A DNA stretch of 63,738 nucleotides, the filler included, from Circinaria calcarea (taxonomy: Eukaryota), in assembly GCA_051942165.1 (NCBI GenBank). It is 11 parts of 11 records of this genome, joined end to end, with 100 filler letters (N's around TTAATTAATTAA, not from the genome) between each part and the next. Parts side by side here need not be neighbours in the genome. Positions count along the whole stretch, not along the records: positions 23,247 to 28,952 come from JAVECS010001815.1; 10 more parts are not named here. The stretch is one strand, 5' to 3'. Positions 23,247 through 24,820 of the stretch are shown here, one piece after another. The notes under the pieces were generated by a model. It ran no database searches. It was not told where the DNA came from and saw only the letters and a list, made by a program, of their open reading frames with translations. Each line of letters begins with the position of its first letter. The first letter of the stretch is position 1. A program made the position numbers and the translations under genes.

Positions 23247-24038
23247 CGAGGCGACCATCTTGTGCCTCAGAGATTCTCCCACTGCCAGCACGGGAAGCGG
23301 TCAAGTGGGAGCTGCGGCCATTTACTACCAGTCTGGTGGATAACCCATTCACTGGAACACCACGCCCTGCGTTAGACCAGGCGTGGCATAACCTACTACA
23401 AAGTATGTTCCTTTTGGCTTCACGTATACACTGGAGACCAATTACCTAACGTTTCTACTAGATGATCATATCAAAGTACCACATCAAACTCTAAAGGCTT
23501 TGAACTTAACTTCTGTTGAACTCCAAGATCAATCAGGAGACATCGCATCCCTGGGGACTTTCCACGCGCTTCACTGCCTGGTAAGTTAATACCCCGTTAA
23601 TACCCTGTTAATACCAAACTTATTGGTATCGTGCAGAAGAAGATACGGCAGATGGCGTACAAGGAGCATTATCACCATGGTAAGAACACAGCTCAGATGC
23701 TTCGCGAGCAAGCACATTCAGGTAAAGTCACCCTATCTCCATCCGCCGAGCGTACGTGCGAGTCAGCTGATGATTTAGATCATTGTATTGAATATATTCG
23801 AGAATACTTGATGTGCAAGCCAGATCTTTCTCTGGTTACGTTCCATTGGATCAACAACACTGCACAGCATGCTGATAACCCATCACTTCGCCTCCCGACA
23901 AGTTGGGATCATTCTCTGCACGAATGTGCTAATTGGGAAATTCTCAACGCTTGGGCGGGCGAGCGCGTCTTTGATCTTTATCGGTACGAACTGTTGCGGC
24001 AACCGGAACATGGCCTGAGCTACGACAAGGATAATTAG
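23247..24038 (+). CDS. DUF3328/UstYa-family oxidase (5' truncated); introns 23403-23461, 23581-23636, 23722-23778
   Basis: Spliced product ...PAREAVKWE...NPFTGTPRPALDQAWHNLL...GTFHALHCLKKIRQ...HSDHCIEYIREYLMCKPDLSLVTFHW...HECANWE. Two HxxHC motifs, the DUF3328 hallmark. Confidence 0.93.
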
Positions 24039-24452
24039 ATTGACGCAGGGTCGGCAGTATAGTAGTTTAAATTAAATGATGAACCTAGAAAAGTGCTGTG
24101 GCGGCATCCGCGCTCGAATGTTGAGGAATCTCTTGTGAAAGTAGCAATCTCGGATCAAAAGGGCGTCCACGGATGCGATGCCCTCCAGAGTGAAATGTTA
24201 TTTGGCCAAACTCGCCGGCTGACCCGTCTACGCCACCTAGACATCTTCCGAGGTTAACCTAATTATATCACTCGGAGTAAGACAATCAGGGAAAATAGCC
24301 AACATTATGAAGGCTCCTCGATCGGGCCCGGCGGGTTGAAGTGACGGTGTGGTGTGCGCCTCTGTATCAACCATCTGAGCGGCCGGTGCCTGCGTGCTGA
24401 TCCAGCCCAGAAACCAATGTGGGCCCGTACTGCTCTCCGTCTGTCTACCGTT

Positions 24453-24460
24453 ATCTATTT
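24453..24460 (+). promoter_or_regulatory. TATA-like element upstream of the precursor gene
   Basis: TATTTAA about 90 nt before ATG 24546, followed by a CT-rich then CA-rich leader typical of fungal promoters. Confidence 0.4.
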
Positions 24461-24545
24461 AACTAGAGCTTCCTTCTTCCCTCTGACTTAATACAACAAC
24501 CCACAACTCAACACTATCTGCCCTTGACAGCTGAACGTGACCACT

Positions 24546-24820
24546 ATGAAGCTCCACCTCTACTTTCTCTCCATTCTCCTAACGAGCATGATGGCTCTTG
24601 CCTATCCGACCCCCAAATGTGCGTTGTCTATTTCCTATCCACGGTTAATCCAACCCCGCTTACAAAAGCAGCAGCTGCAGCCTCCGAGTCGCTAGACGCC
24701 GACGAAGCCGTTGTGTACTCTGCAGAAGATGTGAATGTGTGGGAGAAGCGGCAGATGGCCGGGCTGGATGCGGATGAAGCGGTTGTGTACTCATCTGAAG
24801 ATGTCAACGTTTGGGAGTGA
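24546..24820 (+). CDS. Kex2-processed repeat protein (KEP), putative dikaritin RiPP precursor, ~73 aa; intron 24619-24671 (alternative in-frame acceptors 24668/24674/24680)
   Basis: Spliced product MKLHLYFLSILLTSMMALA-YPTPKSAAASES-LDADEAVVYSAEDVNVWE-KR-QMAG-LDADEAVVYSSEDVNVWE*: signal peptide, two near-identical repeats, KR site. Confidence 0.88.

Follow-up and report, generated by a model that had tools for sequence, protein, structure and literature searches.

A UstYa-family oxidase gene beside a conserved repeat-peptide gene in Circinaria calcarea: a probable dikaritin-type peptide cluster

Analyzing a 63,738-base stretch of the genome of Circinaria calcarea (assembly GCA_051942165.1; hereafter the window, meaning the whole stretch), we found a gene for a UstYa/DUF3328 oxidase and, downstream of it on the same strand, a small two-exon gene for a secreted-type peptide with two tandem units. 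Both lie at the left end of one contig (JAVECS010001815.1; Table 1). Comparison with related sequences suggests that this locus is probably the right-hand end of a dikaritin-type, ustiloxin-like cluster for a peptide that is made by the ribosome and then modified post-translationally (RiPP), in which the small peptide is the predicted substrate of the UstYa enzyme. This reading is carried by spliced models for both genes, membership of the enzyme in an established family, a family of related repeat peptides, purifying selection on the peptide units, and conserved linkage between peptide and enzyme genes.

The UstYa gene, on the plus strand with its stop codon at 24036-24038, is cut at its 5' end by the edge of the contig. 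The original prediction had noted this edge, and it is real, position 23247 being the first base past a spacer; only the 5,706 bases from 23247 to 28952 (GC content 49%) are physically linked to the locus. The spliced product of 205 residues aligns with six UstYa homologues without internal gaps; some 70 residues at its N-terminus are missing, among them those of the membrane helix. Pfam matches to PF11807, the family that Pfam names after UstYa, run collinearly along the exon pieces, at profile positions 48-91 (E 7.4e-6), 95-137 (E 0.011, below the cut-off when taken alone), and 140-220 (E 6e-15, obtained from 23637-24035 read through intron 3). These matches bear out the assignment to DUF3328 made in the original prediction, and its further statement that both HxxHC motifs are present, HSDHC appearing only after removal of a 57-nucleotide in-frame intron, agrees with the gene model: HSDHC is assembled from 23715-23721 plus 23779-23786, removal of the intron gives the gap-free homologue alignment, and both HALHC and HSDHC align with the motifs of the six homologues. 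In the corresponding genes of related metagenome loci (L010, L030, and probably L014, described below), the open frame likewise starts a few residues before DHC. The nearest named homologues, all hypothetical proteins with a PF11807 match, come from Thelotrema lepadinum (58%) and Pyrenula ochraceoflavens (51%), both lichen-forming fungi, and from Xylaria cf. heliscus (50%) and Aspergillus steynii (50%). A sequence search of the PDB gave no solved structure for the UstYa domain (best E 0.095).

The peptide gene begins with an ATG at 24546, 507 nucleotides past the UstYa stop codon and on the same strand. A precursor about 500 nucleotides downstream had been predicted, and this placement stands; what the original prediction did not mention is a 50-nucleotide intron, without which the signal peptide and the repeats fall in different frames. 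The spliced product has 74 residues and, judged by eye, a signal-peptide-like start, consisting of M-K, about 17 hydrophobic or small residues, and then A-L-A at the end. The two repeats split by KR that had been described are seen in this product as two 18-residue units, LDADEAVVYS(A/S)EDVNVWE (LDADEAVVYSAEDVNVWE and LDADEAVVYSSEDVNVWE); unit 1 is followed by KR, then by QMAG, then by unit 2, and the protein stops exactly after unit 2. With a signal-peptide-like start, tandem units, and a dibasic site, but two units only, the product may or may not count among the Kex2-processed repeat proteins (KEPs). The core is without the YxI, FYYTGY, and GLKLAF patterns, as predicted (the core names are those of the original prediction). 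Between the two units, 9 of the 17 compared codons differ, 8 of them synonymously and 1 non-synonymously. Because 8 of 9 codon differences are synonymous, the units are not a product of chance, and the comparison points to purifying selection that has kept the peptide sequence rather than the DNA. A Pfam match of the precursor to DUF7754 (E 0.16) was rejected as noise, and a search of the ESM Atlas with the precursor gave no usable match.

The precursor belongs to a family of 15 members (the window precursor, P0001, P0002, P0009-P0015, P0022, and the peptides of the metagenome loci L010, L014, L030, and L070), which carry 2-4 units built on DxDEAVVY-x7-W. Among five candidates from a word-index search, P0001 and P0002 are close homologues (identities in Table 1), and a search among longer proteins added P0009 and P0010, the latter with four units. 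An exhaustive profile search returned 15 proteins at E 0.001 or better, nine of which were taken as family members (P0002, P0009, P0010, P0011-P0015, and P0022). P0016-P0021 (354-1342 residues) were set aside by eye as long repetitive proteins whose scores are summed weak matches; P0020 (1,052 residues) begins with about 30 tandem REAVVYEK copies, an echo of EAVVY...KR that was judged unrelated by eye. P0009 is a 290-residue database open reading frame (ORF) that encloses a two-unit precursor and continues past the site of the window's TGA; it looks like a mis-called ORF, from a gene call with a code reading TGA as Trp. Every precursor homologue found carries no name in its source. In the searched literature, none of the relevant papers contains the motif strings DEAVVY, EAVVYP, EAVVYS, or AVVYPA, the one match being an unrelated word, and the unit motif strings are absent from three supplement files of PMC7329392, which list accessions, not sequences. 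The peptide family is likely undescribed.

Two subfamilies can be distinguished by their units. The window's own (n=9) follows D[AS]DEAVVY[ST]-x5-[VI]WE, with 2-3 units, KR between the units in all nine members, and a protein that ends directly after the last ...WE in eight of them. The sister (YPAK...SW) subfamily (n=6) follows DxD[EA]AVVYPAx[VI]DxSWVD, with 2-4 units. Across the family, 34 of 36 units fit DxD[EA]AVVY, a figure that is the yield of the pattern used, so that constancy at the pattern positions is partly by construction; 33 of these 34 have Trp exactly eight residues after Tyr. Tyr is replaced by His in the two remaining units, both degenerate (P0010 and P0012). The signal-peptide-like M-K and hydrophobic stretch is found by eye in all seven full-length family models, and a phase-1 intron lies directly before the first unit in all five genes with DNA (window, L010, L014, L030, and L070). 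On L014 (5960-6400, minus strand) each unit has its own exon, and unit plus 65-nucleotide intron form a 131-nucleotide tandem DNA repeat, so that the repeat has grown through duplication of exon-intron modules. Synonymous and non-synonymous codon differences, out of 17, number 8 and 0 between the L070 units, 11 and 0 between the second units of L010 and L030, and 12 and 1 between the first unit of L014 and the second of L010. Judged by these counts, between-locus divergence of the units is almost purely synonymous.

The association of this family with UstYa genes is conserved in relatives. In a first scan of metagenome contigs, for which the three closest precursors were aligned, 525 stretches matched and none was confirmed, the patterns being too specific. 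A degenerate DNA pattern for D[AS]DEAVVY, used in a second scan, picked up 115 loci, of which 80 came with flanks of up to 6 kb. Family-type units are present on 6 of the 115, which amount to four distinct sequences, since L105 duplicates a part of L014 without a difference, and L040 agrees fully with L030 where the two overlap and ends before the neighbouring gene would start. Two look-alikes, L083 (W at +8, GC content 63%, within a long ORF of bacterial appearance) and L027, were on inspection dismissed as chance matches. A precursor whose homologues never lay near DUF3328 genes would have spoken against the original prediction; in the event, all four distinct family loci carry a UstYa gene within about 3 kb of the precursor. 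With five UstYa proteins as queries, tblastn against all 115 loci matched only L010, L014, L030, and L070 and found no UstYa on the other 109 chance pattern-matched loci.

The linked enzymes are moreover of the same kind. In a maximum-likelihood tree of C-terminal domains, the window UstYa, P0003-P0008, and one UstYa each of L010, L014, and L030 form a clade (clade A, support 100/98), and the remaining UstYa genes on these loci fall in two further groups. The window-type UstYa of L070, the N-terminal part of which matches, is cut by the end of the locus and stands outside the tree. The arrangement of the genes varies, with enzyme then peptide in tandem on one strand in the window, convergent genes in L010 and L030, and, in L014 and L070, a peptide gene flanked by two other UstYa genes, the window-type enzyme lying one gene beyond them. 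Common to all five loci are the peptide gene and the clade-A UstYa.

The relatives show what else may belong to such a cluster. The order on L014 is O-methyltransferase, MFS, UstYa, peptide gene, UstYa, UstYa, O-methyltransferase; on L010, UstYa, MFS, O-methyltransferase, peptide gene, UstYa; and on L070, Fung_rhodopsin, MFS, UstYa, peptide gene, UstYa, UstYa. Three of the four relatives (L010, L014, and L070) have an MFS gene and one or two UstYa genes more, and two have O-methyltransferases, of the Methyltransf_2 family (PF00891). Pfam scans of the loci, which took only ORFs of at least 90 or at least 130 residues, covered 12.3 kb on L014, 7.9 kb on L010, 9.5 kb on L070, and the 5.7-kb contig of the window and gave no non-ribosomal peptide synthetase (NRPS) or polyketide synthase (PKS) domain. 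The O-methyltransferase, MFS, and further UstYa (UstYa-B/C) pieces of the relatives have no tblastn match on the other 10 contigs of the window, and matching cluster genes probably lie left of 23247, beyond the contig edge. Tailoring genes in that position would fit the relatives, because these carry extra UstYa, MFS, and O-methyltransferase genes. Fung_rhodopsin genes occur both in the window and on L070 and were considered as a shared cluster gene; the two have no mutual match at E 0.01, and their presence was judged a coincidence.

Several points weigh against a dikaritin-type cluster. All four linked loci belong to the sister subfamily, not to the window's own, for which outside context comes from one metagenome run (X1). 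Four X1 contigs cover both genes in order with 80-99% likeness, and none of them bridges the intergenic gap, one ending at 24049 and the next beginning at 24045; this run was left out of the linkage evidence. (The fourth contig matches only 79 bases of the last UstYa exon, 23776-23854, with 15 differences and on the opposite strand, and is probably from a paralogous UstYa gene in that sample.) The window's UstYa gene is incomplete, its start codon and membrane helix lying off the contig, and it is the one UstYa gene visible there, since the 4 kb rightward hold only a Fung_rhodopsin gene and an ORF of no known family. The ORFs scanned on the window contig, L010, L014, and L070, all of them short contigs, gave no match to a tyrosinase domain. 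The precursor has two units only, fewer than characterized dikaritin precursors. Finally, only half of the sister members, three of six, have KR between their units: those of L010 directly adjoin each other, ARE links those of L014, and in L070 the link is AARS, with an intron in between. The family as a whole therefore does not require cutting by Kex2.

In a rival reading, the peptide could be a secreted, Kex2-processed repeat peptide that acts unmodified, like a pheromone or an effector, its proximity to UstYa reflecting shared regulation or history. According to PMC7329392, 78% of catalogued KEPs have no nearby DUF3328 gene, and several act as linear peptides; conservation in the family, moreover, spans the whole 17-residue unit, beyond a short core. 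We nevertheless regard this explanation as unlikely, since a clade-A UstYa is linked to the peptide gene in four of four distinct relatives despite three gene orders, the surrounding clusters look biosynthetic, with MFS, O-methyltransferases, and up to three UstYa genes, and Tyr is constant in 34 of 36 units.

Alternatively, the UstYa, O-methyltransferase, and MFS genes could serve to modify a small molecule of non-ribosomal origin, made by a core synthase that is not on the contigs, with the peptide gene as a bystander. Methyltransf_2 O-methyltransferases are typical of the enzymes that tailor small molecules, and all the contigs are short. DUF3328 enzymes act in NRPS/PKS pathways as well, among them those of cyclochlorotine, astins, and atpenin (PMC12048977, PMC12435403), which likewise counts against a RiPP cluster. 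Set against this, the scanned ORFs of L014, L010, L070, and the window contig hold no NRPS or PKS domain, the peptide gene stands amid UstYa genes in L014 and L070, and, besides the clade-A UstYa, it is the sole element common to the five loci, so that a bystander role appears distinctly improbable. That the small gene is not real at all, being a chance ORF pair joined by a fortuitous GT..AG, is already very unlikely: the gene is missing from named annotations and its homologues are all nameless, but divergence between units and between loci is almost only synonymous, and 15 family members share the repeat design, with intron position and signal-peptide-like start conserved.

For the probable dikaritin-type pathway, we infer a cyclic peptide product and processing by Kex2. 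DUF3328 enzymes are described as depending on copper and O2, with two copper ions bound at HxxHC...HxxHC, and as membrane-anchored, lumen-facing dimers that attack C(sp3)-H bonds by means of O2 and reducing equivalents (PMC12435403); in the ustiloxins, phomopsins, and asperipin-2a, they form ether bonds with the Tyr ring of precursors whose repeats are separated by Kex2 sites (PMC7329392). By analogy, the 74-residue precursor would enter the secretory pathway at the endoplasmic reticulum through its signal peptide and present two acidic copies of 17-18 residues, D-A-D-E-A-V-V-Y-S-x-E-D-V-N-V-W-E, as substrate units. The UstYa enzyme would be anchored in a membrane, its catalytic domain facing the lumen of a secretory organelle and its two HxxHC motifs holding binuclear copper. 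With O2 it would oxidize a C-H bond in the part of the unit near the invariant Val-Val-Tyr and might extend to the invariant Trp, and the most likely outcome would be a side-chain cross-link to the invariant Tyr, possibly plus hydroxylation. Kex2 would cleave after KR between the units, peptidases would trim the N-terminal side of the units, and after KR trimming both units would end in ...NVWE. Since unit 2 ends at the natural C-terminus, Glu may be argued to be the mature C-terminus in the window's subfamily.

Among characterized systems, asperipin-2a of Aspergillus flavus offers a close parallel, in that a secreted, Tyr-containing repeat precursor (AprA) stands beside a single DUF3328 cyclase (AprY), reported as copper- and O2-dependent, and no tyrosinase is needed (PMC12435403, PMC7329392). 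Unlike the asperipin-2a precursor, by its description, the window precursor has two acidic units, each 17-18 residues long and containing a single Tyr and a single Trp, and not FYYTGY, and relatives of the window locus carry up to three UstYa clades and O-methyltransferases. The ustiloxin and phomopsin systems (UstA/UstYa/UstYb/UstQ and PhomA/PhomYa-e/PhomQ) share with the locus a signal peptide and Kex2-separated repeats, and have several DUF3328 paralogues around the precursor, as in the relatives; ustiloxins and phomopsins themselves are ether macrocycles built around Tyr (PMC7329392). They differ from it in that the window unit has VVYS(A/S)E without a YxI(G/P) core, the repeats are far fewer, the scanned ORFs of the window contig, L010, L014, and L070 include no tyrosinase of the UstQ/PhomQ type, and the methyltransferases of the relatives are Methyltransf_2. 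CctR, the cyclochlorotine hydroxylase, has the same Pfam family and HxxHC(x)nHxxHC motif and serves as the mechanistic model, being a lumenal dimer with a membrane anchor and binuclear copper, which consumes O2 and depends on a supply of electrons (PMC12435403), but its substrate is a cyclic peptide of non-ribosomal origin, which it hydroxylates rather than cyclizes.

The nearest named homologues of the window UstYa are from lichen-forming fungi, where predicted dikaritin-like clusters have also been surveyed. A 2025 survey of 111 lichen-fungus genomes (Pasinato and Singh) reports genes with the HxxHC signature as widespread in Lecanoromycetes, some in two conserved clans, R1 and R2, and others as scattered UstYa homologues; in these two clans it found no repeated precursor (PMC12048977). 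The window locus, in contrast, has an explicit precursor family linked to the enzyme. Viewed against the 1,758 of 7,878 catalogued KEPs that have a DUF3328 gene within 15 genes (PMC7329392), the locus adds to a well-populated class of predicted DUF3328 and repeat-precursor pairs and is a lead, not a surprise. The more interesting part lies at the family level, in the conserved 17-residue unit, the fixed Tyr-to-Trp spacing, the three UstYa clades, and the optional Kex2 sites.

These family features allow a further, tentative reading, which we consider possible rather than probable: the DxDEAVVY-x7-W units may define a new subclass of DUF3328 peptides, in which the segment from Val-Val-Tyr to Trp (nine residues on) would be multiply cross-linked by as many as three different copper-containing UstYa enzymes and then O-methylated, giving larger and more acidic products than known dikaritins. 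Release would be Kex2-independent in some lineages, those in which the units abut or have introns and single Arg residues between them. If true, the producers of such peptides would be lichen-type and soil-crust ascomycetes, for which a RiPP precursor has so far not been identified with certainty. Few fungal DUF3328-dependent peptides have known structures, and the enzyme family is now seen as a new class of binuclear copper oxidases (PMC12435403). The window locus and its relatives supply a conserved precursor family with invariant Tyr and Trp, and the relatives define an enzyme set for direct expression, consisting of three UstYa clades, O-methyltransferases, and MFS. Small, intron-split, and nameless precursor genes of this kind also show why annotation-based screens can miss them.

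Table 1. Coordinates of features in the window, those of the peptide locus first
Feature	Position	Strand	Remarks
Assembly spacer N44-TTAATTAATTAA-N44	23147..23246	.	Left end of contig carrying the locus
UstYa, first visible exon	23249..23402	+	PF11807 profile 48-91, E 7.4e-6; aligns from residue ~70 of P0003 and P0005
UstYa intron 1, 59 nt, GT..AG	23403..23461	+	
UstYa exon 2 with HALHC (23563-23577)	23462..23580	+	PF11807 profile 95-137; alignment
UstYa intron 2, 56 nt, GT..AG	23581..23636	+	
UstYa exon 3; 3' end is H-S and first base of D codon of HSDHC	23637..23721	+	
UstYa intron 3, 57 nt, in frame, GT..AG	23722..23778	+	Removal gives gap-free alignment with 6 homologues
UstYa last exon and stop, completes HSDHC	23779..24038	+	PF11807 profile 140-220, E 6e-15
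Precursor exon 1, 73 nt, signal-peptide-like N-terminus (MKLHLYFLSILLTSMMALA/YPTPK)	24546..24618	+	Judged by eye
Precursor intron, 50 nt, GT..AG, phase 1	24619..24668	+	
Precursor exon 2 and stop (24818-24820)	24669..24820	+	P0001 86%, P0002 81% identical
Precursor exon 2, unit 1	24692-24745		
Precursor exon 2, KR	24746-24751		
Precursor exon 2, QMAG spacer	24752-24763		
Precursor exon 2, unit 2	24764-24817		
Fung_rhodopsin (PF20684) membrane-protein gene, at least 3 exons	about 25821-27236	+	~1 kb downstream of peptide gene
ORF of at least 245 residues, no Pfam match	28215-28952	-	Cut by right contig end
Class II tRNA synthetase fragment	895-1767	-	
Protein kinase, two exons	12542-13965	-	
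ER (endoplasmic reticulum) lumen protein-retaining receptor fragment	35682-36368	+	
OPA3 fragment	58877-59623	-	
Spacers	5716-5815, 11527-11626, 17337-17436, 23147-23246, 28953-29052, and so on		

The window consists of 11 pieces, sorted by falling length from 5,715 down to 5,689 bases and parted by 10 spacers, each N44-TTAATTAATTAA-N44, so that features on separate pieces are no genomic neighbours. The tRNA synthetase, kinase, ER receptor, and OPA3 pieces are of housekeeping type and lie on other contigs than the locus. Among the remaining pieces, an ORF at 6912-8075 (minus strand) combines SesA with ankyrin in weak matches, and another at 50576-51853 (plus strand) is a strong ankyrin-repeat ORF; SesA and ankyrin ORFs are typical of fungal NLR-like genes.

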